Position numbers and translations under genes: made by a program. From assembly GCA_008632985.1 (NCBI GenBank), contig QPGO01000026.1, positions 1 through 64,000 of the forward strand: DNA of 64,000 nt, given 5' to 3'. Source of the stretch: Psammoneis japonica (Eukaryota). Positions 1 to 64,000 of this stretch are shown here, in pieces. Below the pieces are notes generated by a model that was not told the origin of the DNA, searched no databases, and saw only the letters and a list, made by a program, of their open reading frames with translations. The first letter of the stretch is position 1. Each line of letters opens with the position of its first letter.

Positions 1-23
1 TTGGGGATGACTCGATCAAGCCA

Positions 24-3000
24 TTGAAGCTGATGCAGTCCCTGACACACGACTCCATGAGAGGTCGTCACCCATTCCACACGTTCACCAAGGCCTCATC
101 CACCTTGCTTGACGTCAGACACCAAGAACATGAGTCACTAAATGACTGCTTGTCACGATTCAAGAATCAACGTGATGCCACTAAAGAAGGAATGGGAGAT
201 GGATTCCTTGACGGTTTCGTCGAGAACACCAAGGAGTGCACCATGGGAACCAGGACACAAAAGGATGAACTTAAGAAGGACGCGCACGAGACATGGACGA
301 CGCATCTGTTCATTCAGAACAGTGACGATCACTGTCACAAGAGTCTTAAGAAGAGTCTGGTACGAGACTACAGTCTCGGAAATGACACGTATCCCAAGGA
401 TTTGGATTCGGCAATGGACGTGTTGTTGAATCATCCCAAAGACAACGATCCGCGAAAAAGAAGCGGGAAGCGAAACGAATCGAAAAGAAACGATCAAGAC
501 AAGAAAAATGAGAAGGACCAGAGTCATGCACAACAGACACACAGGACAAGGCAATCATCTGTGATTGTTGTGGTGTGGGGGGGCACAAATCCAACAAGTG
601 CAAACACCGCAACGATGTCCCCCATGACAAGTGGTTTAAGAACACCAAGAAGAAGCCCGAACTGCTGGGACAGAGCCACGCACAGGCTCGAACTGGCGAA
701 AACAGTTCAGAAGACGACAACACAAGCGTTGATTCAATCAGTGGCATCAGGTCGTTGCGGTCCAATGGAAATAGAAGGTCTTGGCATTCATCACATTTGC
801 AAGTGACGAACGAGAGCACGCAGGTCAGCATGAACCAGAGCTCATCAAACATCGAGTCAGATGAATTGATCCTCGACAATGGATCCACCCTTGGCATGGC
901 AGCGAGTGGGAACCTCGTGCACAATGTCAGACCAGCAAAGGTCAAGATCGACCCATCAACGAACACAGGAGTGGACACGCTGGATGAAGACTGTGCCATG
1001 CCAGGATGGGGTGACATGAAACTCGGGACAAAGAATGCACTTGCGAACATCCTCAGTTTACGAGACGTCAAGAAAAAGTGCAACGTGACCTGTGACACGC
1101 GAGCAGCCGATGAATTCCGCTCACTGGGTGAGAAGTCGGGGAAGCAAGTCGCGGTGTTCAAGGTGAACAGCATTGGCCTGTGCACGTTCACACCGAGCAA
1201 TGGATTCCCAGGTTGCATGAAGGAGCTCCAAGAAGCAGAGCAACATGCAAACATGAATGTGACAGGATCCAAGCAATCGAAGCGCAAGAAGTGCGGGCCA
1301 GGCAGTGTTGCTGGGACAGTGATTCCGACTGCCAAAGAAAACTCAAAAGGGCACACAAAACGCGAGATCGCGAGGGCAAAAGAGGCTCTCCGATTCTACT
1401 ACGAGGCTGGCATCCCCAGTTTGCGGGATCACAAGCGATTCCTGCGATCAAACCAAGTCAAGAATCTCGACATCATTCCCAAAGACGCCGATCGCATGGT
1501 GGCCATTTGGGGTCCACCTGTGGACGCAGTGAAAGGAAAATCCAAACACGCCCACCATTCCCATGAGAGGAACGACATTGTTTCCTTGCCGCCAGAGCTT
1601 TGTGAGAGACAGAAGGACGGCATTGCTCTGTGCATTGACATCATGGAGGTTTGTGGAGCCAAGCCACTCCATTCTATTGACAAGACGATTAAATGTTGAG
1701 CGAGCGTGCGTTTAAAGTCCAAGAAGCACGTTCACGTGCATGATGCACTGGATGCTGTTCTGCGCCAACACAACAAGGCTTCCTTCAAGATTGACTTCAT
1801 TGAGTGTGATCCTGAATTTAAAGAGATGCTTTCCGACGTTGCGGACGGCATGGACATTGAACTTGTCAGTGCCAACACCAAGGATCACGCACCTGAAGTC
1901 GAGCGCAGCATTCAAACCATTGAGGAACGGACAAGAGCTGCCGTTCAACACGTGCCATGTGAGGCAATGCCCAAGCTCATGTGTGAGCACGCGGCAATCA
2001 AGAACACTGTGATGTCAAACATGCATCTGCAAAAGGAGGGCATCTTGGATGTTTGCAGTCCACACACTGTCCCACAACGCAGGAATCTCGACTGCACCAA
2101 ACATTTTGCTTTCACTTTCGGTGAATTTGTTCTTTCACACGTCGAGAATTCCCCCACGAATGCAATGGAAACACGTGGGATCGACAGTGTCCACCTGCGC
2201 CCCCGTCACGACACGGACAAAGGGGGACACTACACTGTGAATCTCCACACAGGGAAACTTCTTAACCCCTGCAAATGCACTGCAGTCCCTTTAACCGATG
2301 CCCACGTTCGGGCGGTTGAACGCATGGCCTCTCGTCAAGGCATCAAGGACTTCAAGTTCACCGGCAAATGTGGTGACAATCTTCGTGATGCTGATTGGAC
2401 TGCAGGAGTGGACAACAGCAACAGCGACAACGACAGCGACAGCGACAACGACAGCGACAGTGACAGCGACAACGACAGTGACAACGACAACGATGACGAA
2501 TGTGAATCTGACGAAGAACACAAAGAAACCAATGCAATCCTCGCAGAAGATGGATCCAGTCCAAATCAACACCAAGAAGAGACGAAACAACCAGGAGAAT
2601 CGGCAGAAACAACAAGCCAAACCACAAGATCAGGACGCAGCTGCAACACAAAAGCAAAGACAAGTGACACGAGAAAGAAAGTCCACTTTGCAGGAGTGGC
2701 GAGAACCCAAGAAGAAGAACAAGAGCTGAGAAAGCTTAAGTGCTGCCACAATGTCCTGACCAACGGGAGTCCTAACCCACAAGACGACACAGACTACGAC
2801 CATGAAGAAGGATTGGTCACTGCATTTTTCATGTGCGAATGTGATGACAGAGCACGAGCAGGAAAGGAGATGTCGTTCGGTCAGCAACATCCACCACACA
2901 AAGGTCTCAAACTGTTTGGACAGCGAGGACATGACGCCTCACAGAAAGAAATGAAACAACTGCACGACCGAGTTTGCTTCCAACCGGTGTCAGTGAAAAG

Positions 3001-4486
3001 CCTGACTCCGACCGAGAGGAAGAAGGCGATGACAGCCCTGATGTTCCTCACAGAGAAACGCGACGGTCGCATCAAAGGGCGGATGGCACACAATGGAAAA
3101 CCATCCAGAGAATGGCTGGACAAAGACGAATCAGCCAGTCCGACAGCATCATTGGAAGGAATCCTGATGACTGCGGCAATCAATGCAGACGAGGGATGTG
3201 ACATTATGAGCGCTGATGTCCCCAACGCATTCATTCAAACAGAAGTTCCAGAACCCAAGGAAGGCGAGGAACGAATCATGATGAAGATTGCAGGTTCACT
3301 TGCAGACATGCTGGCAAGCATTGATCCGAACTTGTGTGGACCGCACGCAGTCCTGGAAAAAGGAAAGAGAGTCCTTTACGTCCAAGTCGTCAGAGCAATC
3401 TACGGCATGCTTGTTGCCACATTGCTGTGGTACAAGAAGTTCCGTAAAGACTTGGAAAGGGCAGGGTTCAAGTTCAACCCACATGACCCGTGCATTGCTG
3501 ACCGAATTGTCAACGGAAAGCAGCACACAGTGCGATTTCACGTGGATGACTTACTGTCAAGCCACATCAACCCAAAAGTTAACGACAAGTTCCTCAACTG
3601 GTTAAACAGAAAGCACAGGAGTCACGGCAAAGTCGTGGCGACGAGGGGTCCGAGACATGACTGCCTCGGCATGATCCTGGACTTCACTGACAAAGGGAAG
3701 GTGATGGCAGACATGAGAAAGTGTGTCGGATCTGTGATTGACGAATTTCCAGAAAAGATCAAGAGCACAGATTTTGCTGTGACACCAGCAGGGGAGAACC
3801 TGTTTGAGGTGGTTGGAACAAAATTGCCACCAGAGAAAGCACAGATGTTCCATGCGTGGGCAGCGAAAGGACCACTTGCATCCAAACGTGGACGCATGGA
3901 CGTCCATCCGACGATGTCAGCATTGTGCACACGGACAAGAGAGCCTGCCAACAAAGACTGGGCGAAGCTCATCCGGCACCTCAAGTGTCTGAATCGAACG
4001 CGTGACGAGGTGGCCACCCTGAGCGCAAAAGATCTCTGAGTGACAAAGTGGCACGTCGACGCATCCTTCGTGGTGCATCCAGATTTCAAGAGCCACACCG
4101 GAGCAGTGATGACAATGGGCAATGGAGCGACACAAGCTGTGTCACGAAGACAGAAATTGAACACCCGAAGCAGTGCAGAAGCCGAACCAGTGGGTGTCGA
4201 TGACGCAATGACCATGATCCCATGGACGAAGCCATTTGTGGAGCACCAAGGATGTCCCATCGACAAGAACATCCTGTGCCAAGACAACAAAAGTGCAACA
4301 CCATTAGAGACGAACGGTCGTCGGAGCGCAGGGAAGCATTCCAGAGCACTGAACATACGATGCTTCTTCGTGTGCGACCAAGTCGAGAAGGGCAACCTAA
4401 CTGTCGAGCACTGTCCCACCGACGCGATGATTGGAGATTTCATGACCAAGCCATTGCAAGGTGAAAAGTTTTTAAAATTCAAATGA
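24..4486 (+). pseudogene. gag-pol polyprotein broken by a frameshift and in-frame TGA stops
   Basis: ORFs 24-806, 575-1699, 1706-4039 and 4040-4486; the last three share a frame and are separated by TGA; many conserved Tyr positions read Cys or His. Confidence 0.9.
2411..2495 (+). repeat. GACAGC/GACAAC hexamer microsatellite encoding an Asp-Ser/Asn tract in the IN-RT linker
   Basis: gacaacagcaacagcgacaacgacagcgacagcgacaac... Confidence 0.9.
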
Positions 4487-4653
4487 GCCGTCATGGGACG
4501 TTAAGTCCCAACGGCAACAGGCAAGATTCCTGTTTGTGACGTCAGACGAGAATTCTGACGCGTGTGGGTGAAAGATCCCTGGCACCCGGAGAATGACGAT
4601 CGTGCGATCTTCCCCGGAGCGAATCATGTTTCGCATGACAACAATGATCGACA

Positions 4654-6084
4654 ATGAATGACGACGAGGAGGCAGACATTGATCAAGCCATCCTGAGCGC
4701 CGTGTTAGAAGCGGCACTGAACGAACGTGTTGGAGACCTCATCAACCAAGTGATGCACCAAGAAAGGGCCACGCGGCACTTGTACAATGAGAAAAGGCCA
4801 CAAGAACATGTCACTCATGACACAACCGGCACAGTGTTGAATCGTTGGCCGAACAACTGTTTTTTAGAGGTGGCAGGCACCTGCGCAATTGATGCAAGCA
4901 TCAAGGATGAGTTTGTCAGGACGGGCGACCTACGTGCCAACAGTCTTCCTGTGGATTTATGGAATGGAAGAAAGGAGGAAGTTCTCCAAGAATGCGGCAC
5001 AAGAGCGCACAAACGAGCAAGGGACCAACTCTCCCTTTGGACAAGAGCGTTTGCACCGAGTTGTGGCGCAAACGTAGAAATGGCAGATGGCGATCTACCT
5101 GCTGAAGAGCCAGTCTTAGCAATGGATGTGCTAGACCATCACATGATTTGCTGGGAAGAGCGATTCGTGACTCACCGTCAGCAATTCAAGGAGGTGTTCA
5201 TGAGACTGTGGAGACAACGTTTTGGTCTCATGGAGTCAGTCTTCGAACTGTGCAAGAAGTGGTCGCCTCCCATGCGGCACTGCATGTCCGCTGCAACACC
5301 GATGTTCTCTCTCCATGACGACATGGAACAGAGACCACTCGAGATCAGGAACAAAAGCCAGACGGCACATGCCACTCGAGACTGCTGGCAATGCTTGGCC
5401 GGTGGACCGCAAGCTCTTAACACAAGGCGATCCAACCTGTGGTGATCGCGAGGCAACATGCTCAAGCTTGCACTAGACCGCAGTGACATTGACCAACTTG
5501 ACTTGTCACGAACCTGTGGTTTGCCGTTGTGTGGGGTTGACACCCACGGCGAAGTTGGAGGACTCATGGATTTGAACGTGGATCCTTTTGAATCACGTCA
5601 GCAGAATCGCAACATGGACAATCTCGTCCGGCACTCATTGGCCATTGATGGCAATGGAACAATGTACGATGGATTCAAGCTGGCAATGTTCTTCAGCCTC
5701 AATGCCAACTGGCTGTCCAATCGCGGAAGCCTGTGGCTTGTCAGCCAAGCAACTTTTTTCGAGTTACGTCCAGACGCAATCCATGGATGGACCAAGGACG
5801 TTGTTACGAACCTGGAGACCAAGTGCAAAGGTGGCTTCAGCAACGATGTCGTGAAAGAACGAATCCGACGCGACTGTGCAACCCAATTCGTGCGCTGTGT
5901 CGAAGGCATCACCGATTCATTCAATGGCATGCTTGACTTTTTGAATCCTGGTCAGACACAGTGGTGTCACAGCACCGAAGCCGACGTGAGTGTGGAAGGG
6001 ACAGGTGTTCCCGATGTGACAGGATACGATGTCATTCCAAAGGGCGCTGTTCCCACTTACGACGTTCAAGAACAATTGATGTGA
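4654..6084 (+). pseudogene. additional ORF (~477 codons, unknown function) between pol and the 3' LTR
   Basis: ORFs 4654-5445 and 5458-6084 share a frame, separated by one TGA; ends just before the PPT. Confidence 0.65.
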
Positions 6085-6096
6085 GTGGCAGGAGTG

Positions 6097-6464
6097 TGTT
6101 GGAGCATGTGAGTGTGGGGTGAAAGCAACCCGAACACACGTGAATTGAAGTGAAAGACAAGTGAGGCTCCATGCGCGTGCAATCCGATGACGTGTGCATT
6201 CCGATGACTGCATCTTCTTCGTCATCGATCTGTCGTTCACGCAACAACTTTCTCACTCTTTAGAGTGAATCATCTGGTTTGTCATCTGTGTTGATTGGCA
6301 CTGGGAAGCATCTGTTAAAACAAACATCTAACAAGCAAACGAAGTTTGTGCTGGGCAATCTTCTGGGCAAACCACAGCCGCACAAGCAGCCAGGACGAGT
6401 GTGACGAGAGCGGAGGATTCTTCATGAGATCCCTGTTTGCCGCCATTGACTCGTCGGTTCAACA
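6097..6464 (+). repeat. 3' LTR of the first copia element
   Basis: TGTTG...CAACA inverted termini; preceded by the purine-rich tract (gagtggcaggagtg), whose caggagtg end also precedes LTRs A and B of the minus-strand copia tandem; partner LTR is outside the window. Confidence 0.75.
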
Positions 6465-6627
6465 CTCAATGAACAGACCAACCTGACAAATCAGTGTTTG
6501 GAGCTTGTCTTTTGGATGCAAAGAGCACACAACATGTTTGGATGACTTGCTTGAACTGTTTTGGGGGGGGGGGGCGATGGGAGACATTGAATTGCATGTG
6601 GCTTGGGTGGGAAAATCTTTACTTTAA

Positions 6628-7114
6628 GGTAGCACGGGTGCAAAAGTGGGCCAGATTCTGCGTGCACAAGCTTGGCATGTTTTCCACACAAATCGCCAAT
6701 GTCGGCTCGCCAACTTGAGCCCTCTCCCGGACGATGGAAACTTGGACATTTCACATGACAAAGTGCTCAAACTGCTCAGCTGCACTCCCCTCGACTTGTT
6801 TGTGAAGAGAAGCTGCAAGTTTCCACAGGTTTCTTGTTTTGTGTGGCTCTTTAAAACTCGAATGTCCGATTTTGGCACCTCTCTGATCAGACTCGTTGCA
6901 TGTTCTCAGAAACCTGTGAAAACTTGCAACTTCTCTCCCCAAACAAGTCAAGGGGAGTGCAGCTGGGCAGTCAAAGCACTTTGTTGTGTGAAATGTCCAA
7001 GTTTCCATCATCCGGGAGAGGGTTCAAGTTGGCGAACCGACTTTGGCGATTTGTGTAGAAAACATACTAAGCGCTACGTACGTAGAATCTGGCCCACTTT
7101 TGTACTGTACCACC
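6628..7114. mobile_element. MITE with ~125-bp terminal inverted repeats flanked by TTAA
   Basis: 6628-6755 is the reverse complement of ~6987-7114; TTAA at 6624-6627 and 7115-7118; no credible coding capacity. Confidence 0.85.
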
Positions 7115-7374
7115 TTAACGAGCGCTCGCTTTCGCGCATCCCATTTCGTCTGGCCATGAACAGTTTTGGAACTGTGCCTCGCGCGAACAAGACATGCCGC
7201 GCGCACACAGATCCACGACTGATCAGTTGCGGATACTCGCGGGTGGAATAATCTTTGTTCGTTCCACTCTTGTCAACAGAAGTTCAACCAGAATTTGACA
7301 CGACACCCCTCACTCGTTCCGTTACTTGTAATGGCATCAACCACATTCCTCTCTATTGTCATTCTCTTTACACC

Positions 7375-14942: not shown

Positions 14943-15218
14943 TGACAGGATTTGAACACGATTTAGGTGCGCGCGAAATGTCGCGCACTGTTTGGTTTAC
15001 CGCGCACAGTTTTGTGTGCTTTAGTTCCGCGCGTTTGCGCACGATGTAGTTTGCTTTCGAGCCACAAGGCTCACAAGAACAATGACAGTAGCCCGATTGT
15101 ACCGACTTGCACGTCTTTCGGCTCCTGTGACGGTCTCTGAGCGGAGACTCATCTGCTGTTTAGACAGCAGCAAGGAGTTGTTGTTTGAATTCTTGCCATT
15201 TGCCTTCAATTTCTGTCA
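14943..15218 (+). repeat. left LTR-like repeat
   Basis: TGACAG...CTGTCA termini; inverted partner at 18241-18516. Confidence 0.9.
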
Positions 15219-51386: not shown

Positions 51387-51413
51387 CAACTCGGACATTT
51401 CGGTGTGAAGGAG

Positions 51414-51802
51414 TGTGAGAATATACATATATTCATGTATCAGTGTGCCATCAAGTCCTACGTGTGACAATGACCGCTCAGAAACCGCCATCAACCACCA
51501 TCAACGACTCACCCAATCACAGCTCGAGAAACGAATGAGATCGGAGGTCTTGGGTTCAAATCGAGAATTGAGCCTCACTTCTTCTTTTCTTTTATGCAAT
51601 CAAGAACTTCTCGTTCCTGCTAAGTCTTTTCACTACGTTCTCGGTACAAATACGGGTCACTTCTCGTTCTTTACAAATTCTTGTTGGTTGTCGAGTAGAG
51701 TAGTTTTTGTTCTCACAATTTAGCGACTGGTCAATTCGTACCTCCTAAGTTGTCTATTGTTACTATTTCTATCTCTACGGCGTAAACTACCGTATACCCA
51801 CA
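51414..51802 (+). repeat. 3' LTR (TpA largely retained)
   Basis: tgtgagaatatacatatattc...actaccgtatacccaca. Confidence 0.95.
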
Positions 51803-53446
51803 CACGACGCAAGAGCGACTAACGGCATGGGTGAAATTGGTGCAAGATTAATGCACCAGAACCAAGGATCGAGTAGCACTATCCAAACCAAAGGTCCATC
51901 GACTGCGACAACAAACAAGGTGAAGAATACACCGAGGCAATAAGAAGGCCATTTTGCTACAGAAAGGAGTCATAGACTAACTGCTCTTTCATTCTTTGAA
52001 TCTCAAGCAAGCTACAGGCAGTCATCTTGTTGGTGCCAGGAATCGCATCACTTGATTCAAGACACGGGGAATTGAATCACTGCTTCGATATCAACGAACA
52101 ACTGAGAAATACTTATCGAGAGCATACAAGACAAAGCTGATTACAGTGGAAGAATATTCCAAGGCGGATTGGTTTGATGAGAACGGGTACTCGCAAACAG
52201 CACGTGATGAAGTGTAGGGGAGATTTGTCAATCCGTGGAATTCTGTCGCTACCAATGGTCACCATTCACTCGGTACCTTCCTTTCGTAAAGATTGGATCG
52301 ACTCGTTACAAAAACAAGGAGATACATGATTTGGGCGAATCTACAACTCGTACTCTGAACAACAGAGATTTGGATGCGGTGTTTGCTCCACGCGCTTCAA
52401 AAAGCAATCCCGATGCAATCAAGTTGACGGGACATTCCTCTTGTGTGCTTGGTGGAAATGGCCCATGGTGGCGATATTACAATAAATGAACGGATCCGCA
52501 TATTTCATAGTATGCCTTTCTCCGTTTGACTTTGACCGAAACGAGTAGTGGACGCGCCGTACTGGCATCATGGCAAACCGTTTATGTCTGCGCCATGTGT
52601 CACCATCAGTAGGCCCTAAACGACAATGGTGGGAGTCAACTATATTTCCAAAAAAGTTAACTCGTCCCTGTTGCAAAGGAAACAAGACCTTTACAAAGAA
52701 CAAGAAGCTGGTACTCTTTAAAATCACATGTGTGCTCCGGCGCAGCATTGGTGTATAGTCGCACAACACCGCAGGATGTCGAAATAATGTACAAGGCTGT
52801 GGTGCTCATTTTTTGTGATGGAGTACTACAATCAAGAAGAAGAGCTCCACCATCGTTTCTACTTTGGTGAATTTTGCTTGGGTCATTTGATTTGGCTGCC
52901 ATTCGTAAGCTATAAGACTATTGCTTGTTGATTTGGCTCTTGGTTCTGTGATGTCCATATGCACCACGGTGGTTCATGGCCGATAGCCATGCATCCCAAA
53001 GGAAGCTCTCCGGATATACAAGGATGAGCAATGCAAGAAATCTGTTGCGATACATTTGGGGCACGTTTGACTTGGCGGATGATAATATACAAGAAACTCC
53101 GTTGTTGCTACAGGAAGCGTTTCGATAGATTTTGTTGTTTTGCGTCATGAGACATCGGTGGAATCCAATCCAGATGAACATCATGAGTGTCCAAGCAGGA
53201 GAGAAGAATTTGTGAATGACGGCGAGATTCAGCTACTAGAGTAGACTCCAATGAAGAAAGTTCGTACTCCAATGACGGTGAACGGCAAGGGGTCACACTG
53301 GCTTAACAAAAATGCTACTTGATAATGTCTCTGCTAGGTCTACAAGGATCATTTTGTAGAATAAGAAAAGCCATCATGAGTTTGGGACGAAACACAAACA
53401 GTAATGCAATGTAAACCACCCGTTCAAAGATCGCTCATGCTGAGAT

Positions 53447-56400
53447 CTAAGTATCAAACAAAGCGCTTCTGTTTGCATCTTCTATTTCGCCGTCTTGCTG
53501 AACATCTGGCTCCAAGAATGTACATTCGAATGTGCCATACGCCATTGCTATCTCGTCGGAGAACATCTCCAATACTGCAGGTTTGCAATGAAGCTGAAAC
53601 CTGTACTCCAACCCGTTGGCCTCGAACCAGTGCTTGACGCTCTTGACCTTGTGATTATTGTGATAAATTTTGATGTCGTGGCCTTTTTCCCAGATCTTTT
53701 CTTTGGTATCAGGGACTGTTCCGATTCGCAATATCCTGTTGCCGACAACAAAGAAACCTTTTTTGTCGGGAACGAGTGCCTCGTGAGGTCGTACAGCTTT
53801 GTTCTTGCTGCTGAATCCAGAAATACTGTCACTAGAACGTAGAAGAATGTTCTCGATCAACTGCCATGCTTCAGAGAAAGACAGCACGCGTTCCATAAGA
53901 AACATTTTGTACCCCACCTCTTCGAACTGTCGATTCACTTGATCAACGTGCCTTTCTAAGCGTACCCGCAATGGTTCATCTTTATCCATCCGTGAACCCT
54001 GCAATGAGTGTGAGCGTAAACTTGTCTTCTTCGAAATGAGAGTTTGTTGTAGCCCGCCACCTCCACTGCCGATGTCTACTTCATCATCAGGAATCAATTT
54101 CTCCAGTCGTTTGATGACTTGTGTTTTACGTTTGTTCTCAGACTCTAGAAGCTTAACTCGCGAACGAAGCTTCTCGAACTCAGACAATTTTGCAGCTTCC
54201 TCCGAACTGCTACAATGCTGTTCAACGGGCGGCTCTGATGCCACTTCCTTGCAATGGCAAGCTTGTTTATCGGAATGGGTAACCATTTGTATTTTAGATG
54301 ATTTGCTTGATTGTAAATGAACACCGACATATTCCAAACACGAACCCTTTGCAATAACACCAAGGCATTCCAAGACGAATGCTGCCTTTTCGTCTTCATC
54401 AGCTTGTTTCAAATCATTGTATCTGTCGCGATCTTCTTCCCACAGTTGAAGGACGCCGATCGTAATAGTGTGAAGGTCATCAATCACCTTGAGACCGATT
54501 GGATCCAGTTCTTCCAAGGAAATCAGGTGAACCTTTCGAAGATGGCAAGACGCTACCTTCGTTAATGGCTCAAGGATTGACGCCTTTAACTTTTGAATAA
54601 TCGACGCATTGTCCTTGTCCACACCAATCTCGAAGTCAGAAAAGTTATCCATAACGCATATTTTCTTCGCAATGCGTCGATAGGCCAGCATGTACCCATC
54701 CCGGCTGTTGCCATTGAAAAAATCTTGAAATATCCAGAGAAAATTCTTTTGTTTTCTTTTCAGTGAATAGGAGTACAACGAGATGATGATAGACGCACAA
54801 CCCAAGAATGGGACGTTGCTTACTTCGAGACCCTTGCCGACAACATTGAGGACTGCAGCGATTGTTCCCTGGAGCTTTGAAGACAAGGCAACAGTCACTG
54901 TGCCGCTGGAAATGACTTCAGCTGCTAGATAGGTCCGTTGAAACGACTGACAAAAGGCAAAGAAGTAAGCCTGGATGTGCTTTGGCATTGCTTCTAGCTC
55001 CTCGGGAAGACCTTGTACGGATTCTAGCGATCGATCAAAATCCTGAATATTTGAGGTGAGCTTCTGTAATGCATTGTACTGTTCTGGGGTAAGCCGTTCC
55101 ACATCCAAACGTCGCTTCAGCTCGATGAGTTCACTCGTAGACTTTGAGGTGAGTTTCTGCAATGCATTGCACTGTTCGGGGGTGAGCCGTTCCACGTCCA
55201 AACGTCCCTTCAGTTCCATGAGTTCGTTTGCAGACTCGACGCCTGCCTCACCAACCTTGAGCATCTGCAGCCGAGCCTCCAAAGATGCAATTTGCTTCTC
55301 TAGATCGGTTGCTGAAGCCCACTGAGGCAAGCTCTGAAGAGGAACAAGGGCCTCGTATTCCGCTTTGGCGCGCGCAGCAGCAGACGTTACATCAGGATCT
55401 GTCGCACCTCTGGCCGCCTCAATAAAGTCTTGCAATCGTTGCATTTCTTGATCTAGAGCAACCCTTGCTTGGAACTTCTCAGCACAATCCTTTCGAAACT
55501 GCTCTTGTTTGCTCTCTTCTTGTTTCCTTTGCTCTTCTGCAAGTCGATGTTTCTCCACCGCTTCCCTTTCAAACCGCATTCTTTCTGCCTCTTGCTCTTG
55601 TTGCCTTTGCTCTTCTGCTTTCTGTTCTTCAAGCTCTTCTACAACTTGATCTCTCTCAGCCGCTTCCCTTTCAAGCCGCATTCTTTCCGCCTCTTGCTCT
55701 TGTTGCCTTTGCTTTTCTGCTTTCTGTTCTTCACGCTCTTCTGCAACTTGATCTCTCTCCTCTGCTTCCCTTTCAAGCCGCATTCTTTCCACCTCTTGCT
55801 CTTTTTGCCTCTGCTCCTCTGCTTTCTGTTCTTCAAGCCGCAAGCGTGCTGCCTCCTCTTCGCGACGCCGCTGCTCCATTGCTTCCTGCTCTAATCGTTT
55901 TCGTTCCAACTCCTTTTCTTGCCGCGATCGCTCTAACGCCAGCTCTTCCAGCCGCAATCGTTCTGCCTCTTGCTCACGACGCTCTTTTAATTTTCCAGCC
56001 TCTTCTTCTGCCTTGTTGCTTGTGCTGGTTTTCTGTGGGGAAGCCTGAGGCGCTGGTGATCTCTTGATGGGGAAACCTGCAACTCCTTGTTGCTGCGCTT
56101 TTAAAATCGAAACTACTTGGGAATGACCTTTTTGTTTGGCCATGTCTAGCGCACTCTGCTTGTGAGAGTAGCCTGCTTTAAGATTGGCATCAGCTCCATG
56201 ATCCAAGAGAAGCTGGACGACCTCACCATGTCCATTCTTGGATGCAGCCATGAGAGGCGTCTTTCCTCCTTTACATCTGGCATTTATTTTGGCGCCGTGA
56301 TCCACCAAGAGTTTTGCGGCTTCCACTTGTCCTTGTTGACTGGCATGGTAGAGCGCGGTGGAGCCATCACTGTCGACTGCATCCACATTTGTGACATCGT

Positions 56401-57363
56401 CGAGAAGTCTCACCAGTTCCCATTGACCATTGCGAGCAGCATGCCGCAAACTCTTTTCTATCTTGCGTTCCGGCGGTAAAATTAAAAAGCCCAACGTGTG
56501 CTTTTCTGCACTACCTTGTCGCCCTCGTTTCGCCTCGAAAATCCTTTCTGTGTTGCGTTGTTGCTTGAGTCGTTCTCCTTTCCCCTCGACTTCTGCAAAA
56601 AAGAGGCATAAATGAAAAGGTTATGTGAGAAACGCACACAGGTATTCCGGCGGTATAACAAAAAACGCAACGTGTGCTTTTCTGCTTTACCTTGTCGCCC
56701 TCGTTTCGCCTCATAAATCCTTCCTGCGTTACGTTGTTGCTTGAGTCGTTCTCGTTTCGCCTCGACTTCTGCAAGAAAGAGACAAAAATGAGGTCATGTG
56801 AGAAACGCTCACTGGCATTCCGGCGGTAATACCAAAGAACGCAATGTGTGCGTTTCTGCATTACCTTGTCGCTTGAGCAGTTCTTGTTTTCGTTTCGCCT
56901 CGACTTCTGCAAGAAAAGAGACATGAATGAAAAGGACATGTAAGAAACGCACACTGGCATTCCAGCGGTAAAACCAACGTGTGCTTTTAGTCATTACCTT
57001 GTCGCTTGAGCAGTTCTTGTTTTCGCAGTTCTTGTTTTCGTTTCGTTGCCACTTGTTTGTTCTTGTTGCGTTCCACCAATGTCCGAATTTCGCTTTTCAA
57101 AATATTGGAAATGCCCGTGTTGGAATCCAAGTCCAAGCGCGTCAAATTCCTGTTGTATTTTTGCAGTGTTCGCTTCAATGCTCTTGCTCCGTCGTCACGA
57201 ATTCGGTTGGAATTAAGGTTGAGCCATTCCAATGTGGTGTTGGTTTCGAGTGACGTTGCAAGCGCTCTTGCACCGGCATCACCAATTTCGTTGTGATGAA
57301 GACTGAGCGTTGTCAATGTGGGATCATTTTCCGGAGACGGCGGCAGGCTTCATCGAGTCTCAT
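53447..57363 (-). CDS. LRR (RI/NLRC3-like) + duplicated micro-exons + ankyrin repeats + charged coiled coil + unknown C-terminal domain; apparent 1-nt frameshift near the start
   Basis: Exons ~57363-56998 (LSLHHNEIGDAGARALA), 56906-56865, 56768-56691, 56592-56515, 56457-53447 (GSTALYHAS, GKTPLMAAS ankyrin motifs); phase-1 GT-AG introns; the last acceptor is inferred from frame. Confidence 0.75.
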
Positions 57364-58117
57364 GCTGCTGTTGCAAAATCACAATCACGTGCCACCTGTC
57401 CGCACACAACAAAAAGAGATGCAACAAAGAAGTGCAATGCACAATGACAAGACGGGATCGTTTGCGAGTGTGGTATCTTTCAACAAGAACGAGTCGATGC
57501 AATGAAAGCAACGAATGATGCACAAATGATGGAGAGCAACTACTGTACGGTACAGTATGATGGAAGGGTCTGGTGTCTGGTGTCTGGTTCGCATCCAATC
57601 CGCGACTCTGGTTCGTGCGCACTGACCAACCCGAATTTTCAAAAGATCGGAGTCATCACAGCCTGAAATGACCTACAAACGATTTCTGGACTTAACGGAA
57701 TGACTGTTCTCAGACTTTCATGCTCGGGACACCCTACTGTTAAAGTCATTTCAGACAAAAATGAAGCTGGTCAGAATTGAAACGTTAGATCACAAATTTG
57801 TCCCGTGTACGAGACAAATCGCAGCACCAGAGAGTGGACAAAACAAATGATGTGGTGTCTCACACAATGAATCTTAATGTGGTGTGCAATGCATCGGGAG
57901 TTTGTGTGTTCTTGCTGCAGGCTGAGACTTTGTCATTTTTGATCTTTGCTGTTTTGATGGATGTGTTGATGCTGCTGCAGCTGCAGGTGTGGCGAGACGT
58001 CATTTGTGATTTCACACCTTTTTGCAAAACATCGCTTGTGCGCCAGTCTGCGAAAGGTGTGTGGCATCCGTGGCATGGATTGAGTGCTCGGCAATTGTGC
58101 TTGTTTGTAATTTCCTG

Positions 58118-58514
58118 GACTCGTTCCAGCCCTGGGTGTGAGCTCATGGCACTGACGTGTGATGCAATTGTTTTTTGTCATCCGTCGCATGTTTGGCGCA
58201 CACATTTCTGCATGCAGTCATCCAAAAAATGTTCCAGACTCGCTGTTTTGCAAAACCCCAGACGTTTTATTTAACAAATTTATGAAAACAACAATGCACC
58301 AGGTGCATGCTTCAATGTCTGAAGAGCGCACCTGGCTCAGCAAAACATGATGTGCTTCAATCATGGGCAAGTTTGTGCACTCGCAAAACTGCCTCATTTT
58401 CTGTTGGCGATCATTGGCATGTGTTCATTGCTCGCCAATTTCACTGCGGAGCTTGTGCTTGGAATTCTGCAGGCCCAATGTCACACAGATTCCCACCCAC
58501 ACCTGGAATGCATT
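58118..58514. mobile_element. older TpA-converted relative of the 46428-46796 MITE, 4-bp TSD CCTG
   Basis: Colinear with 46428-46796 (gactcgttccagccctgggtg...attcccacccacacctggaatgcatt); CCTG at 58114-58117 and 58515-58518. Confidence 0.85.
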
Positions 58515-60195
58515 CCTGTTGCTTTCCCTTGCAGGCTGCAAGTGCTGAAACCAGCTTGGCTGTGCGTCACTGTCGGTTGCTTGGACACACGCCAAAGTGC
58601 AGGGCGCGGTGGGCCCACAAATCAAGCCTGCTGAGAGCAACAGCACATGCAGCTTTGACAACTGCTTGCTCTCAACATGTGTCAAGGGAGCTGCAGCCTC
58701 CACAGGAGAGCTGTGGTGGGGACAGGGGCAGCTTGGCGCAAGTTGACGAAAAAGTGTGCCCAGGGCTCAGGAGAGCATCTGATGCAGGGATCTTTTGACA
58801 ACTGAGCTCCACCCAGAAAACAAGACAGTGATTGAGAAGCTGGTGCTCTTTGAAGTTGGGCCTTGTCTCACCATGCACATCAGATCAGGAGCCAGTGCGC
58901 TGCCACAAGTCACCCAAAATGAAAGCTGTGCGCCACGTGCACTCTCATCGTGTGAAAAAGTTTTTCAACATGTGGTTGGCAGGACAATTTGGGCAACCTG
59001 GCTAGACAAAAATTGGCAAGCTTTCTTTCTTTCTTTCTTGGTGTTTTTTGCCCCAACATGTGCAGGAGCTCATCAGAGTTGTGGTTCTGAGTTCAGGTTT
59101 CTTTCTTGCTTGCTGGGCATCTCCTGACATGCTGCTCTGGCCTCAGGTTGTGAAATGCATTTGCACAACTGTGCATGGGCCACAGGCCTCAGTCACCAAA
59201 AACAGTGCTGCAATGTTCAGAGCACCCTCTTTCCATTCTTGTCATGAGTTTGTGCCAATGCACACAATGATTGTGTGCCTCTTGTGCTGCAACCCTCATT
59301 GTCACACCTGCAACGCATGCAAAATTTTGGGAAGCAGCCACACACAGCAGATGCATGAGGAAGCACTGCACCCAGATCACCACCACATTGCAGCAAGCAG
59401 CTGGTGCAGGAAACCTTGTGCAGAAATGTTTGGATGTAACTCAGAAAGGATGATCTGTTGTGAAAAAGCTTGGGAACCCACACCACTCATCTTGCACACC
59501 CAACATGGACAGATGGATGGCAAAAAAAAAAAACAGATCCATTTTTAAAGTGCTGTCACTCCTTTGCCAGCCAGGCTGGTGCCGGCTGACCCACACTCCC
59601 AGCACATCTTGTGGTGTGGCAGGGCAGGAGCCCACACAGACTGGCCAGAATGGGTGTCAGAAAACTGGCCAGCCAAGTGAGAGTCAGGGTCAGACACAGA
59701 TCAGGCTGCACAGTGGACAGACAGCCAAATTGTGGCTTGTGGAGTGCACATGCAACAGCTTGTGCTGACTCAACAGCTGATGTCAAAGACACCTCTGGCA
59801 TGGACAGATCACAGACAACAGAAGTGAAAAGCCTTCAAAGCTCACAATGTTTTCATGAGACAGGTTGTGAAGCCCGGTGTTGCCTCACATCTGAGGGGAG
59901 AACAACACAGGTTGATGGGCCAAATTGAACAATGTGGGTCTGTCCTTCATTTTCCATGCAGGTTTTGGGGGTTCATTGCAGTTTTGCTTCTGTTGCATTT
60001 GGTGTGGGTGGCCACACCAGCATGCTGCGCATTGACATCACAGGTCAATGACTCAGCCCCATTTTGTGCCGCTGCATGAACATTTCTGATGCCACTGCAT
60101 TTTGTGTGTGGTCTCTGTCAACACATCCACATTTTTTCCCTTTTGATCCTTTTCAATCCACGATTGCCTCCGTTGGTTTTCATTTTTGCAAATCA

Positions 60196-62094
60196 TTTGA
60201 GGATGGATCCATGGGGGTGAGTGCGGACATTTGTGGGCCCATCAATTTTTTGGAAAAAATGAATTCATTGCACTGGTCTAAAAGCACACGATGTGTTCCA
60301 GTCCCAGTGATGCACAAAACAACAATCCCTTTTGAGCACAATTCATGTGTGAGCTTCGCATGTTGAGGCTGTCCACAGAAATGCTTGTGCACTTTGGCTT
60401 TTGTCTTCGATTGAGCATCATGTGAACATTTAAACTGTTTTTCATTGGTGTTCAAGCATGACATGAAATGTTTCTGTAGAAACAGTGCTGGCTGCACATC
60501 AGTGCTCACAGTGCAAAAATTTTTGTGTGAAGCAGACCACTGCTGAAAAATGCACACAGCAACATTTTGTGTCAACTTTTGAACAGTTGCAGCACATGAA
60601 TCCTCAAAAATGTTGGTGAAAATCATCCGTTGTGTTGCAACTTGTTTGTCCCAATGAAACACCATTAATTGCTCAAAAACAATGACATTGCATCACTGAC
60701 ATGAGCCATCTTGTCAGTGTTGCAAAACATTAAAATTTGGGAACCAGGCCTGCGGGAGCATTGGCCACTTGTCTTTCTTTGTGGGTGTGGGTGTGCGCCA
60801 TTGCTGCATGTTTGTCGGGGTCATCGAATGCAGGTGGGGCGACTTCGTCAAGCAAGTGACCTCAACCCGTTTCCGGGTTGCCGGTTCAAGCACGTGTGTG
60901 CGGAAAAAGGGAGGGACTCGAACCCCCGACGAATTGAAGTGGCAGGCAGGCTGGCATGGCCACTGCACCGGTGACGCAGATGACCATCACATTTGATGGC
61001 TCATGCCATTTTTGGGCTGCAGCGAGGTGCACGGACACTCTTTTTTGTCCAATTTGCTGCAAAAACAGTGCATCGCACAAACTCACTTGTTGTTTGATGT
61101 GTTTTTTCCAGCATGACTGTTTTGCACACAATTCATGACAAATTTTCTTTGTCTGAAGCTCAGCGCATTTTTAAACATGCCACGCCAGCAACTCCAATTT
61201 TCCAGCACTTTCAAGCTCTTCTGAAAAACAGTTCCATGGACCCGTCACAGGGAATTTGTCAATTTTTTAGGATGTCCTCATGACCTCCAATGTTCTCAAT
61301 GATCATTCTCTGAATCCAAACAATCATTTGCACTGAACAACCCATGCCATTCCGAAATCCGAGGGACACACTCTTGAACTCGGGTGGACTGTTGCCCGAC
61401 CGACTGCCCCACACAAAAAAGTCTGCAATCACCAACCACTGAGTGGTCAGTGAAATCTGTGCTTTTGGTGGTGAAAGCTTGTTCACAAGTCAGAAACCAT
61501 GCAAAAAACATGCAAATGTTGCAATGCGCAGCTGCCAGTGAGAGTCAATGTATCACGGTGACGTGTCACAGCCTTTGAATGTCACAAAGGGAGTGACAAA
61601 AATGACCTTTTGTCTGCATGTGTGCTGCAACGTCATTTTTCTGCACATTTTCTTGGTTCATGTGTGGCTGGAACATGTCACACGGACGTTTGCCAAAACA
61701 AAATTCCAGTGACAGGTCAAACTTTGACTGTTCCTGGGACATCATAGAACGGTCATGCAATGGTTGTGCCCATGTGTGACATTTGGCTTGTTGACTGCAG
61801 ACATGTCTGTGGCCAATCAAATGCCAATCATCAGCATTTCCTGGAAAGTCATGGCTCATTTCCATGGCAAAAATCAGCAGCAATTTTAACCTGGCAACAG
61901 GGCACAGGCTGACAAGTGGCATTTGAAGCTTTGAACATGCAGCTCTCACAGCAGTCTGACAGCCCCCTGATGAGGGTTTGTCAAACACATGAGTGTTTGG
62001 GGGTGTTCCAAGACAGGTCCAAATGTCACAGCAAAGTGCGGGAAATTCGAGGCCCACAAATGTCCATCCTCACCCCCATGGATCCATCCTCAAA
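60196..62094. mobile_element. ~1.9-kb non-autonomous TIR element, 44-bp TIRs
   Basis: 60196-60239 (tttgaggatggatccatgggggtgag..ggacatttgtgggcc) is the reverse complement of 62051-62094; CA on both flanks. Confidence 0.7.
60909..60977 (-). ncRNA. tRNA-derived (Gly-like) Pol III relic or SINE head
   Basis: Minus strand: A-box-like ccggtgcagtgg, gcctgccac, B-box GGTTCGAGTCC, then TTTTT; no acceptor stem pairing. Confidence 0.35.
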
Positions 62095-64000
62095 CAGCTG
62101 CCTGTGCCTCCAGGAACCACACATCCAGGTTTTTGATGTTTTCATTGTCCTCCTCCTCTTCCTCCTCCTGCATCCATGGTGGGGTGGCTCTCATTGACAA
62201 CATGAAGGCCAGTGTTGCAGTGACTCTCATTTGGAAGACACATGTCAAACAAGATGTTGCCATTGCAAAGAAAGTCAACAACAGCCCTGTGGATGTCCAA
62301 ATGCACCATCATGTGATGACAATGCTTCTGCTCACCAATGCAAACAAACACCTGAACCCTGTCAAGATCAGGTGGCACAAAGTGGGTGCAAAAGCAACAT
62401 GTGTCCAATGCTTGTGGCTTGCCTGACCCAGCTTGCAAAGTGAGGAAATGTTCTTCCAACATGATTTTGTGGGGTCGTCTTCATGCATCATCCCAATGTT
62501 CTTAAGTCCTCTCCATTGGCTGGGCACCAAACAAAGAATGATTGACTTCAGAGGACCCACAAGAGGAGATTTTGTGGTGCAATTGGGAAGTTCCGGGCCA
62601 CGCACAACTGGGTTGTTCATCCGGGATCCATTGCAGGCAAACCAATCAACAAATGGTTGGAACAAAAACAGATGGGAGCAGATGCTTGAGGAGGTGCTGC
62701 TTGGACAGTGACAGATTTGCAAGGGGAGCATCTGGGGCAGAGATGACACTTCTTCAGCTGTTGCAGCAGTGGGAGGCAAAGATGCAGCAGGATCACAGGG
62801 GAAAGCTCCTGGAGTGAACAGAGTGGATCCATTCCCAAGAAAGAGAGGTGATGCAGGATGGACCATGGCAGAGCTTGTGAAGTGCTCCATGGAAAAAAAC
62901 CACCAACATCAATGCCACTTCAAAAACTGTGGGATGATGTGTCATGATGATCGCCTGCACAAACACAGGGATCCTTCAACAGCTTCATCCCCCACAAAGG
63001 TTGGAGCAGTCATGGGGTGAACCCTTGCAGTGGTGCACTCTCTAGCTCACAAGCCCACAAAGTGGGATTGGCAGCTGTGCCCCCAAAGCAAGGAAGGAGT
63101 GTGGGAGATGCACCCTGACAAAGTTGTTGGAGGCATCCCCCGACATCCCCTGTGGAAATGGGGGCCATGGGATGAACCCTGGCAGCAATGTCACAAAAGC
63201 TGTCAAAAAGCCCAGAATGACTGGCTGCACCTCTTGGAAGCATGGGGGGGGGCATGAGATGACCCCCCTGGCAGCATGGCAGGTGTCTTCTGTGCCAACC
63301 CTGTGAAGTGGTGCTGCAGAACCAAGCTTCCCTTCCCCACCCTTGACTGCATTCTGACCCTGCTTCTTTAACAGACTTGAACATTGACCCATGATGTGTG
63401 GAAAACAGCAAGCACTGTGCAGCAGGTGTTTGGAGATGTGTTGTTCTGCCCACAAAATGAAACTGTGATGGCATCAAAAGCAAAAAATTGTGAACAGAAT
63501 TTCATTTCCCCAATCCAACTGAACAAAACAAAAATTTTGGAACAAACTGTTGAACAGGACATTGGAGCTGCAAATTGAAATTTTCATTGTTGTTGGAAAA
63601 TGACATCACTGTGAGGAAAAAGAAGCAGAAAGTGGTGCAAAGAAAAACAGTGTGTCACCCAAAAAAGGTTGTGAGTTGTGCAGCACATCTGTGTGGAGAA
63701 CATGTGGAGAGGATGCCTGCAAGGAGAATTTGGAAGAATTTTGCCATGCTGCGGGAGTCATGCAGTGTTGTGTGGAAAAAATGAAAGTTTGTTGCATCAA
63801 ATGTGGGTCATCATGCACTTGAGAAATGAAAACCCAATGGGCCAATGCAAAACCTGTGTGGAGCCCGCCTCAACTCTGATGTCAGATGACTGCAAAGTTC
63901 AATTTTGAAAAAAGTTGTGAGAAACTGGCAGCAGCTTCAGTGCACAATTTTGGCGCTCTCACCAGGGGTCATTTTTGAAATGTTCCTGGCATTGTTTGGG

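Follow-up and report, generated by a model that had tools for sequence, protein, structure and literature searches.

The locus analysed here raises the question of why TpA, a dinucleotide of ordinary frequency in some parts of the window (the whole stretch of 64,000 nucleotides under study), is almost missing from others. A two-state segmentation of the window gave block edges close to those proposed in an earlier, sequence-only reading of this DNA, and the depletion described there is real: the depleted blocks, 48.6 kb summed, contain 271 TpA where 2,986 are expected (observed/expected ratio, O/E, 0.09), compared with 539 where 1,019 are expected (O/E 0.53) in the normal segments between them. 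Per kb, TpA O/E is 0.02–0.2 inside the blocks and 0.3–0.6 outside. TG and CA are enriched in the depleted blocks (O/E 1.65 and 1.59, vs 1.32 and 1.22 in normal segments), and beyond TA, TG and CA, only CG differs in dinucleotide O/E between the two types of block. The stop triplets in the blocks comprise 98 TAA, 83 TAG and 1,213 TGA.

What can be recognised in the depleted DNA varies from segment to segment. The segment at 2–7054 (+ strand; TA O/E 0.14, CG O/E 0.80) holds a copia element, E1, while the one at 10609–22795 (TA O/E 0.09, CG O/E 0.42) is decayed, unclassifiable DNA with a tandem array of 19 units of 42 bp (15669–16484), a pair of 276-bp inverted repeats (14943–15218 and 18241–18516) and an N gap (19643–19755). 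No Pfam family reached the curated cut-off among the ORFs of at least 110 aa in this segment (32 of 85 ORFs scanned). Two sub-threshold Pfam matches in its ORFs are at chance level. Further depleted segments lie at 28433–40711 (TA O/E 0.11), 40894–46437 (0.04) and 46782–51337 (0.06), the second of these including the most depleted stretch, 40894–44959, whose content is unclassified and where the ORF scan found no Pfam family. The segment at 57000–63997 (TA O/E 0.07, CG O/E 0.34) is unclassified except for a decayed element with terminal inverted repeats (TIR), and its left edge is approximate because the first ~350 nt overlap an ORF with leucine-rich repeats (LRR). No viral genes were found in the depleted blocks. 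Because most of the depleted sequence is without a class assignment, selfish DNA is demonstrated for about half of the depleted DNA only; within these blocks, to which the process had been said to be confined, copia elements and the TIR element are indeed affected.

Outside the blocks, host DNA has a TpA O/E of 0.44–0.57, similar to that of intact environmental relatives of the copia elements (0.55). It includes a gene with ankyrin repeats on the - strand (53447–56620; Pfam Ank_2, 4.8e-28), an uninterrupted ORF of 1,057 codons in DNA of normal TpA content, and an RNA-like run, X2, covers 53.3–57.5 kb only, including this ORF. The LRR ORF (57002–57349) also has a Pfam match. Support for genes here is thin, the ankyrin and LRR ORFs being the only two with Pfam matches.

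The coding sequences of the copia copies record the direction of the change. E1, which is cut by the window start and whose reverse transcriptase (RT)-bearing ORF lies at 1700–4039 (+), keeps 5 of 20 conserved Tyr residues, with 8 changed to Cys and 6 to His. In the tandem pair E3/E4 (29847–40908, -; LTR-internal-LTR-internal-LTR, copies 94.3% identical), 1 and 0 of 20 are kept, with 12 and 13 Cys and 4 and 3 His, and in a pooled set dominated by the insertion E5, 5 of 26 are kept, with 12 Cys and 6 His. Cys and His together number 18, 14, 16 and 16 at conserved Tyr sites across the four copia copies, whereas Phe, Asn, Lys, Gln and Trp are 75–100% kept. By comparison, 78 environmental relatives carry Cys at only 5 of 1,701 conserved Tyr sites (0.3%). 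With only 0–5 of 20–26 conserved Tyr left per copy and this 78-locus negative control, the proposed loss of Tyr to Cys or His stands. At codon position 1, A-to-G changes were found at 15 of 16 sites after T and at 3 of 78 after other bases (p = 1.4e-13), a contrast that was replicated element by element (E1: 6/7 and 4/66, respectively). The environmental relatives, all intact, have a median TpA O/E of 0.55, and the TpA-loss signature was not seen among the 78, in a search biased against finding it since intact Tyr-containing motifs were required. The sole named copia relative, from Fragilaria crotonensis, is 37% identical.

The insertion E5 shows when and on which molecule the change took place. 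A perfect target-site duplication, the 5-bp CACGA, lies outside both of its LTRs. The 5' LTR (44960–45361, +) is hypermutated, with 4 TA (O/E 0.14), and the internal region (45362–51413, +; gag, integrase, RT and RNase H) has a TA O/E of ~0.06 and frame breaks, while the 3' LTR (51414–51802, +) is spared, with 26 TA (O/E 0.79). Twenty-two of these 26 TA sites read TG (16) or CA (6) in the 5' LTR; the conversions are all in the 5' LTR and none in the 3' LTR, and reverse changes amount to 0 of 49. The LTRs differ at 33 positions, 22 of them TA to TG/CA, 5 of CpG type and 3 outside pyrimidine-purine (YR) steps (389 nt). As the two LTRs belong to one insertion and yet differ by 22 conversions, the change came after integration, and the hypermutation acted on chromosomal DNA. 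Relative to 32 intact relatives, E5 has per 100 nt 3.2 fewer TA, 2.3 more TG and 1.5 more CA, with no change in CG. Loss of 85% of TA sites against a background divergence of 0.77% corresponds to a ~485-fold excess, a historical estimate from the E5 LTRs and not a measured rate, which places the process orders of magnitude above background.

A DNA-type element was hit as well as the LTR retrotransposons. Nested inside E5 is a MITE-like TIR element (46428–46793) with 28 TA (O/E 0.89) and a CG O/E of 1.41, present in very high copy number in the run (summed depth 20,739–43,182), and it is unmutated within a domain of TA O/E 0.04–0.06. A decayed copy at 58118–58511 has 3 TA (O/E 0.11): where the intact copy has 22 TA sites that align to a YR step, this copy reads TG at 11 and CA at 8, 19 conversions in all, and 0 of 48 TG/CA sites reverted. 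Taking the two polarised pairs together (E5 LTRs and TIR copies), 41 TA were converted, and reversions were found at 0 of 97 TG/CA sites. The changes are thus A:T-to-G:C transitions at TA steps on both strands, and codon contexts and polarised pairs agree on a TpA-specific process of the direction first proposed. Its targets are the four copia copies, a TIR/MITE-type element and unclassifiable decayed DNA; neighbouring host DNA, one E5 LTR and the later nested insertion are spared. The process is also episodic, as read from sequence history: the later nested TIR insertion is intact, and the tandem sisters E3 and E4 were hit unequally (26 vs 9 TA hits).

The tandem pair, compared over 5.65 kb, separates TA loss from CpG decay. 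Here 218 of 286 mismatches fall within the TA/CG/TG/CA quartet, and sites of CG vs TG/CA (91) are commoner than sites of TA vs TG/CA (35), so the claim that copies differ mainly by TA versus TG or CA fits the E5 LTRs (22/33) but not this pair. There are also 46 TG/CA double differences, and such differences occur in paralogous copies elsewhere in the run as well. TA loss and CG loss are concentrated on opposite tandem copies. Blocks with TA O/E 0.06–0.14 retain a CG O/E of 0.70–0.80, and several other depleted blocks have a CG O/E of 0.34–0.47. TA loss is therefore independent of CpG decay, and with TA lost where CG is kept and no reversal at 97 sites, the process is, as suggested, distinct from decay of 5-methylcytosine (5mC) and opposite to fungal repeat-induced point mutation (RIP).

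The proposal that repeats as such are the target is not supported. Depth over 41335–43335 is 56–76, compared with 64–67 for gene DNA, so that this stretch (41.3–43.3 kb; TpA O/E 0.04) looks single-copy, although the 90% criterion used for depth would miss copies that have diverged, and the very high-copy nested TIR element is spared. The LTRs of the tandem pair (29847–30086, 35261–35499 and 40670–40908) have TpA O/E values of 0.18, 0.26 and 0.57, and the last of these is partly spared in the interior of a depleted region, which is not what a simple chromatin-domain model would predict.

The bases flanking the sites were also informative. Among 76 events, 35 of them with assumed polarity, the base after the converted A was C in 34, T in 14, G in 18 and A in 10, compared with A 30, G 28, C 10 and T 8 after kept orientations (p = 8e-6). 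Hot sites are TA followed by a pyrimidine (TAY over TAR), cold sites are YTAR (TTAA, CTAG, TTAG/CTAA), and all 7 kept TA of the polarised pairs lie in TTA/TAA. TadA acts naturally on U-A-C in the anticodon loop, and the first base editors made from it prefer TAC. The preference for a following pyrimidine agrees with this and may point to a TadA/ADAT2-derived enzyme as a candidate.

We consider it probable, though far from assured, that the pattern reflects intense post-integration TpA-to-TpG/CpA hypermutation of mobile DNA by enzymatic adenine deamination, serving as a genome defence. A deaminase-fold enzyme, of ADAT2/TadA type or another member of the fold, would turn DNA adenine into hypoxanthine, and replication would fix the resulting I:C pair as G:C. 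A guide or a chromatin state, and not repetition as such, might direct the enzyme to silenced or foreign DNA. The outcome would be a mutational defence in which Tyr (TAY) and other TA-containing codons are destroyed along with TA-containing regulatory motifs.

Adenine chemistry is assumed in this proposal, since A to G on one strand is indistinguishable from T to C on the other. An unlikely alternative is oxidation of T at TpA by a dioxygenase of TET/JBP type acting on silenced DNA, which would yield 5-hydroxymethyl- or 5-formyluracil; G mispairing or faulty repair would then give T to C, which in duplex DNA is the same as A to G. Thymine hydroxylation at trypanosome telomeres and in dinoflagellates favours T before A, and 5-formyluracil mispairs with G. 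Against this, 5-hydroxymethyluracil:A pairs are not strongly mutagenic, and we know of no precedent for conversion of 85% of sites; the flanking preference, read as T to C, becomes a purine (mostly G) before T, which matches none of the TET/JBP-type preferences that we are aware of. Less likely still is an adenine analogue of CpG decay, in which N6-methyladenine at heterochromatic TpA gives hypoxanthine through spontaneous or enzymatic deamination. Per-site losses since the tandem duplication, derived from the counts, are alike (TA ~0.36, CG ~0.31), and the palindromic YR steps TA and CG both go to TG/CA in the same blocks. However, near-TA-free blocks keep a CG O/E of 0.7–0.8, opposite tandem copies carry the two losses, and an enzyme episode accounts better than slow decay for a burst that took 85% of the E5 sites at 0.8% background and was followed by complete quiet, as the nested element shows; moreover, eukaryotic N6-methyladenine is known at ApT, not TpA.

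Two other explanations have very little probability. The earlier reading had named error-prone repair of Pol eta type (WA to WG), here at heterochromatic lesions, and A to G at TA does fall within the WA motif, but the absence or rarity of AA-to-AG changes contradicts it: AGY/AGR was found at 0 of 41 conserved Asn/Lys codons in the E5-dominated set and at 1–2 per element otherwise, AA O/E is flat (1.22 vs 1.20), and the spectrum is almost pure, with the 3 non-YR differences of the E5 LTRs. It is equally improbable that ADAR-like A-to-I hyper-editing of retrotransposon transcripts was fixed by reverse transcription and reintegration. Most recognisable targets are retrotransposons, and ADARs are described as preferring U 5' of the edited A (bioRxiv 10.64898/2026.01.13.699255), but editing at the RNA level is contradicted by the asymmetry of the E5 LTRs, which are identical at integration. 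In addition, the process reached a DNA element of TIR type, single elements carry changes on both strands (TGY and CAY outcomes), and the tandem copies went on diverging in place. Hardly more probable is an artefact, in which a base modification or a basecalling or polishing error in repeats causes TA to be read as TG/CA. Contigs of exact 31-mers from run X1 (k-mer depth ~55) match the window with 3 differing letters and 1 gap at 41120–43875 (2,757-nt contig), 0 differing letters at 43849–44535 and 1 at 44508–44990, so that 4 differing letters are spread over 3.9 kb free of TA, and the 3 differences in unique DNA are CpA/CpG, none TA. The run's contigs thus reproduce the TA-free sequence, with the reservation that X1 could be the very read set from which the assembly was built and is therefore not fully independent support. 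The window also contains an N gap, which an artefact would accommodate, but old duplicates share changes, paralogues differ in a tree-like way, and the nested repeat, although present in hundreds of copies, shows ordinary sequence.

To our knowledge, only the RIP of fungi and the APOBECs of vertebrates are well-established mutational genome defences. Ascomycete RIP resembles the present case in acting after integration, at the DNA level, in one transition class within a dinucleotide context and in sharp compositional blocks, but it changes C:G to T:A, mostly at CpA, and so makes TpA, the very dinucleotide that is lost here in favour of CpA/TpG. RIP also needs duplicated DNA and a premeiotic stage. 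A RIP-type C:G-to-T:A process is contradicted by the 0 of 97 TG/CA-to-TA changes and the TpA O/E of 0.09. Decay of 5mC at CpG feeds TG/CA, as TA loss does, and operates in several of the blocks, but it cannot remove TpA and is distributed differently between the sister copies. APOBEC3 likewise inactivates retroelements by deaminase-based hypermutation, recognisable in the genomic copies by its dinucleotide context, but it acts on cytosine in minus-strand cDNA before integration and gives strand-specific G to A, in contrast to the A:T-to-G:C changes after integration on both strands observed here. TadA, ADAT2-3, ADAR and TadA base editors all convert A to I, read as G, with T/U before the target A, as here, and the U-A-C context of TadA matches the TAY preference. 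The natural substrates of TadA/ADAT2-3 and ADAR are RNA; DNA activity is reported only for engineered TadA and for a few ADAT2 enzymes, the latter as cited in the available text of Mettrop et al. (bioRxiv 10.64898/2026.01.13.699255).

That preprint is also the single report of a TpA-specific A:T-to-G:C system, in one alga, so the process is not undescribed as had been supposed: its available text documents the same signature in Bigelowiella natans, where NCLDV and virophage sequences integrated in the genome undergo TpA-only hypermutation (Mettrop et al., 2026; bioRxiv 10.64898/2026.01.13.699255). Mutation-accumulation data place the rate of TpA-only A to G/T to C at ~6e-7 per site per generation; only a subset of the lines was affected, and the changes struck viral DNA that is silent and single-copy. 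The authors propose ADAT2 as the enzyme and find RT and DDE domains over-represented in TpA-poor, CpA+TpG-rich clusters (Mettrop et al., 2026). As far as the available text describes, the change in B. natans, like that in the window, is exclusively A:T to G:C at TpA, orders of magnitude above background and non-constitutive; it is local to foreign or selfish DNA, in the window as far as the depleted DNA could be classified, and by this analogy we infer that the two may be the same kind of process. The inserts there are viral, whereas the recognisable targets here are copia LTR retrotransposons and a TIR element; the B. natans mutations arose de novo, whereas ours is historical sequence evidence; and depletion is deeper here (O/E 0.04–0.14, vs Rho 0.45 in the B. 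natans NCLDV region). Relative to the available text, the asymmetry of a single insertion's LTRs, the +1 pyrimidine rule and the independence from CpG decay are new. The host lineage is probably diatom-like and probably different from B. natans, as judged for the latter from gene structure, with a 3.17-kb intronless expressed ORF here and a mean exon of 159 bp in B. natans. A literature search for diatoms found no report of TpA hypermutation, and the preprint nowhere uses the word 'diatom'.

We can only tentatively raise the possibility that a second, phylogenetically distant lineage, a diatom-like stramenopile and not a chlorarachniophyte, possesses a naturally occurring DNA adenine editor that works in episodes against mobile DNA soon after its integration, in which case TpA-erasing hypermutation might be an old and widespread eukaryotic defence and a mirror image of RIP. 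What the window adds is a near-saturated signature on ordinary LTR retrotransposons and a DNA transposon, chromosomal action read from the LTRs of one insertion, a figure for intensity, and episodes. The signature suggests a little-known cellular way of disabling invading DNA, and the flanking-base rule helps to narrow down the enzyme. If the host lies outside the chlorarachniophytes, the system would be spread widely enough to be identified by comparative genomics, the enzyme being findable by comparing genomes with and without the signature. A natural DNA adenine deaminase would be of interest to base-editing research. Annotation pipelines should beware of such DNA: erasure of TpA removes TAA and TAG and thereby opens long spurious ORFs on both strands, and transposons can be hidden from domain searches, as seen here for RVT_2, which scored only 32–50 bits in one Pfam search and had no match in the other ORF scan.

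Across four large regions of the window, a per-kilobase scan gave an observed/expected ratio (O/E) for TpA of 0.02–0.2, compared with 0.3–0.6 in between. Two-state segmentation of the window delimited the depleted segments at 2–7054 (TpA O/E 0.14), 10609–22795 (0.09), 28433–40711 (0.11), 40894–46437 (0.04), 46782–51337 (0.06) and 57000–63997 (0.07). Summed, these segments contain 271 TA, compared with 2,986 expected from base composition, while the normal segments contain 539 with 1,019 expected, and the scarcity of TpA claimed in an earlier sequence-only reading is thus confirmed. Only the dinucleotides TA, TG, CA and CG shift in frequency between the two classes of block; AA, AT and TT are unchanged. 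Among stop triplets in the depleted blocks we counted 98 TAA, 83 TAG and 1,213 TGA, and since TAA and TAG are nearly gone, long open frames arise on both strands, which should not be read as genes. The segmentation also called a 1-kb depleted patch within the ankyrin gene (55095–56096, TA O/E 0.20). This patch overlaps 93-nt and 102-nt coding tandem repeats as well as a high AA O/E, and is probably compositional rather than a result of hypermutation.

We compared the window with contigs from two sequencing runs, here called X1 and X2. X1 carries a fraction of 0.76 of the words sampled from 44001–54000, and its contigs, at a k-mer depth of ~55, match the TA-free stretch 41120–43875 with three letters different and one gap, 43849–44535 with zero differences, and 44508–44990 with a single difference. 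The differences in unique DNA lie at 41425, 41798 and 42702, where the window has CpA and the run CpG, and none is at a TA site; they represent allelic variation or else CpG transitions that separate the assembled individual from the sequenced one. X1 therefore provides good support for the TA-free sequence, with the qualification that it may be the assembly's own data and hence not independent. X2 (30 Mb of contigs from a sample shared with X1) covers only 53299–57541 among the 20 kb compared, that is, the ankyrin ORF and a leucine-rich repeat (LRR) ORF at 57002–57349, with zero coverage in transposon blocks; it resembles a transcriptome even though it is labelled 'DNA?'. At 57374, possibly a splice site, one X2 contig diverges from the window.

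The depleted DNA includes several copia-type LTR retrotransposons, marked by weak Pfam matches to RVT_2 and gag-pre-integrase. E1 extends from 1 to ~4.5 kb on the plus strand, and E3 and E4 form a tandem pair with three LTRs on the minus strand (29847–40908). E5 (44960–51802, plus strand) is complete, with TG...CA LTRs of ~390–400 nt, a purine-rich tract ahead of the 3' LTR and CACGA on both flanks. Nested in E5 is a 366-nt MITE-like element (46428–46793) with 12-nt perfect terminal inverted repeats (TIRs) and an apparent 4–5-nt flanking duplication, and a decayed relative of it lies at 58118–58511. The depth of X1 contigs summed over 46.0–47.3 kb is 20,739–43,182, as compared with ~55–65 in unique DNA, indicating a TIR family with hundreds of copies. 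The window gave no match in Rfam or tRNA scans, so this island of very high depth is not a known RNA gene. No Pfam family reached the curated cut-off in the other depleted DNA (85 ORFs scanned), except for the LRR ORF on the margin of the last block, and the ORFs of the normal blocks matched none beyond ankyrin and LRR. The ankyrin ORF is expressed-looking and uninterrupted over 3.17 kb; outside its ankyrin repeats, the 1,057-aa protein matched no homologue at E<=0.001. Nor did a protein atlas supply a usable match to the host genes. For the chlorarachniophyte Bigelowiella natans, a comparison table lists exons of mean 159 bp and 7.8 introns per gene (PMC12730881). Intact copia relatives of 1,300–1,800 aa are present in public data and are common in freshwater and marine metagenomes; one of the 85 homologues listed has an organism name attached, the diatom Fragilaria crotonensis (37% identity), and eight relatives looked up by cluster carried none. 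Taken together, these points make a diatom-like stramenopile the most likely host lineage and B. natans an improbable one.

The direction of change was read from proteins and from reference copies. A position counted as conserved if one residue was common to at least 70% of intact homologues. By this measure, conserved Tyr was kept at 5 of 26 positions in a pool dominated by E5, with Cys (TGY) at 12 and His (CAY) at 6; the E5 counts come from this pooled test only, its per-element alignment, to the wrong family, having been left out. Tyr was likewise kept at 5 of 20 positions in E1 (8 Cys, 6 His), 1 of 20 in E3 (12 Cys, 4 His) and 0 of 20 in E4 (13 Cys, 3 His), the latter two counts not being independent owing to common ancestry. 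Phe, Asn, Lys, Gln and Trp were kept at 75–100% in the same test, and in a control of 78 environmental relatives conserved Tyr had become Cys at 5 and His at 119 of 1,701 positions. At conserved Ile, Met, Thr, Asn and Lys codons, the first A had changed to G in 15/16 cases after T and in 3/78 after other bases (p = 1.4e-13), a bias also seen element by element. In the TIR pair, 22 TA sites of the intact copy align to a pyrimidine–purine (YR) step, 19 of which now read TG (11) or CA (8) in the decayed relative, while none of the 48 TG/CA sites of the intact copy is TA there. Again, the 3' LTR of E5 has 26 TA, of which 22 read TG (16) or CA (6) in the 5' LTR, with 0/49 reverse changes. Compared with 32 intact relatives, E5 is poorer by 3.2 TA per 100 nt and richer by 2.3 TG and 1.5 CA, with the same CG content. 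Three-way LTR parsimony proved unusable as a direction test where parallel hits are common, and we therefore rest the direction on the protein and reference-copy tests. With these controls and the cross-codon comparison, the proposed change of TA to TG or CA, including Tyr to Cys or His, stands.

Since the LTRs of one insertion are identical at integration, E5 acquired its 22:0 asymmetry when already in the chromosome. Its two LTRs have only three non-YR differences in 389 nt, a background divergence of 0.77%, and the loss of 85% of TA sites exceeds this ~485-fold per site. TG↔CA double changes set other genomic copies in X1 apart from the window, for example at 45755/6, 48040/1, 48052/3, 48707/8 and 48970/1, as expected of independent hits on one ancestral YR step. 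The nested TIR element retains 28 TA (O/E 0.89) amid a domain at 0.04–0.06; being unmutated, it indicates that nothing has happened there since its insertion, and thus that the process is episodic. The E5 domain ends abruptly on its right, with zero TA in 50968–51342 and normal density from 51343, ~70 nt ahead of the spared 3' LTR. An LTR at 40670–40908 is also partly spared (O/E 0.57, compared with 0.18 and 0.26 in its sister LTRs) and has depleted DNA on either side; the cause may be a chromatin edge, promoter activity in the LTR or gene conversion.

Flanking preference was assessed on 76 events oriented as A→G, of which 41 have firm polarity and 35, from the tandem pair, an assumed one. The base after the converted A was C in 34, T in 14, G in 18 and A in 10 cases, as compared with C 10, T 8, G 28 and A 30 for kept TA counted in both orientations (p = 8e-6), and position −2 had no effect in the 76 events. 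All seven kept TA in polarised pairs lie within TTA/TAA. The survivors in the blocks are YTAR words, with TTAA, TTAG/CTAA and CTAG at 0.28–0.33 of their density in normal DNA; ATAT, ATAC, ATAG and ATAA are at 0.02–0.05. TG and CA conversions are interleaved along each copy, without long strand-coordinated runs. A transcriptional strand bias, considered on account of a sense-strand TG:CA ratio of 50:25, was dropped, because Tyr is TAY, so that a +1 pyrimidine rule itself predicts an excess of Cys over His, and because the composition mass balance gives only ~0.9–1.5:1.

TA loss is separate from CpG decay, although both processes feed TG and CA. CpG O/E is 0.34–0.47 in some blocks but 0.70–0.80 in E1 and E5, despite their near-total loss of TA. 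The 286 mismatches of the E3/E4 tandem pair include 91 of CG↔TG/CA, 35 of TA↔TG/CA and 46 TG↔CA double changes; TA was lost at 26 sites in copy B and 9 in copy A, and CpG loss leans the opposite way.

What has acted here is a DNA-level, post-integration, TA-specific A:T→G:C hypermutation of both strands, locally confined and episodic, and the genome-defence-like character proposed for it is supported. Adenine is probably deaminated enzymatically to hypoxanthine, which would then be fixed as G at replication. This chemistry is favoured by near-complete conversion in a short time with an almost pure spectrum, and by the T-A-pyrimidine preference, which resembles the U-A-C target of TadA. A T→C chemistry, such as thymine oxidation, would be compatible with the sequence as well, in which T→C and A→G look alike owing to the symmetry of the TA duplex. 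Pol eta-type WA→WG mutagenesis, the other mechanism put forward at the outset, is contradicted by the absence of AA→AG, and a bias resembling GC-biased gene conversion by the rarity of A→G outside TA at the conserved codons. ADAR editing fixed by retrotransposition is contradicted by the LTR asymmetry and by the hits on both strands; moreover, the TIR element is of DNA transposon type, which excludes a route through RNA or cDNA as the general one.

Targeting to repeats, as first suggested, found no support. The 41.3–43.3 kb stretch is single-copy by depth (56–76, compared with 64–67 in gene DNA, in a count that copies >10% diverged escape) yet depleted (TpA O/E 0.04), and the window's most repeated sequence is unmutated.

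The view that such hypermutation is undescribed is out of date, as its kind is already described in one 2026 preprint. In the parts of that text available, 231 of 302 nuclear point mutations in B. natans mutation-accumulation lines fall in integrated NCLDV and virophage regions, all but one of the 231 being A→G or T→C and every such change on TpA, at ~6e-7 per site per generation and in only some lines (Mettrop et al., bioRxiv 10.64898/2026.01.13.699255). The same source describes the NCLDV region as silent and single-copy, reports 124 TpA-poor, CpA+TpG-rich clusters and 324 TpA-poor CDS enriched in RT/DDE domains, and proposes an ADAT2 homologue as the enzyme; its available text gives no extended motif and no mention of diatoms. 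Full-text literature searches yielded this preprint as the single directly relevant paper and found no report of TpA hypermutation in diatoms, and a diatom DNA-methyltransferase paper discusses the RID-related DNMT4, with no TpA or deamination in the text available (PMC9998398). In the window the process has reached saturation on LTR retrotransposons as well as on a DNA transposon, and our data further prove that it acts after integration and add an estimate of its intensity, its episodic behaviour, the +1 rule and its independence of CpG decay.

The 78 environmental copia loci have a TpA O/E of 0.28–0.93, in a search whose patterns contained Tyr and would miss hypermutated relatives. The lowest four, all freshwater-metagenome loci (L003, L004, L005 and L007; 0.28–0.34), are also low in CpG (0.15–0.32), and L004, the sole one of them among the rows listed, has no Tyr→Cys change (0 Cys). 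These four probably reflect methylated hosts rather than TpA hypermutation.

Lastly, we noted some structural features of the depleted blocks. An imperfect 495-nt palindrome (6624–7118, 78% self-complementary) sits precisely on the right-hand boundary of the first. The second contains a scaffold gap of 113 N (19643–19755), flanked by repeats (19455–19540 and 19839–19962) that match 14425–14941. A 42-nt unit is repeated 19.4 times at 15669–16484 (85% matches), within long open frames at 15206–17623 (minus strand) and 15671–16525 (plus strand), and the stretch containing this array is bounded by 276-nt inverted repeats (14943–15218 and 18241–18516, 94.6% identical); it could be a foldback/TIR element or a decayed repeat-protein gene.
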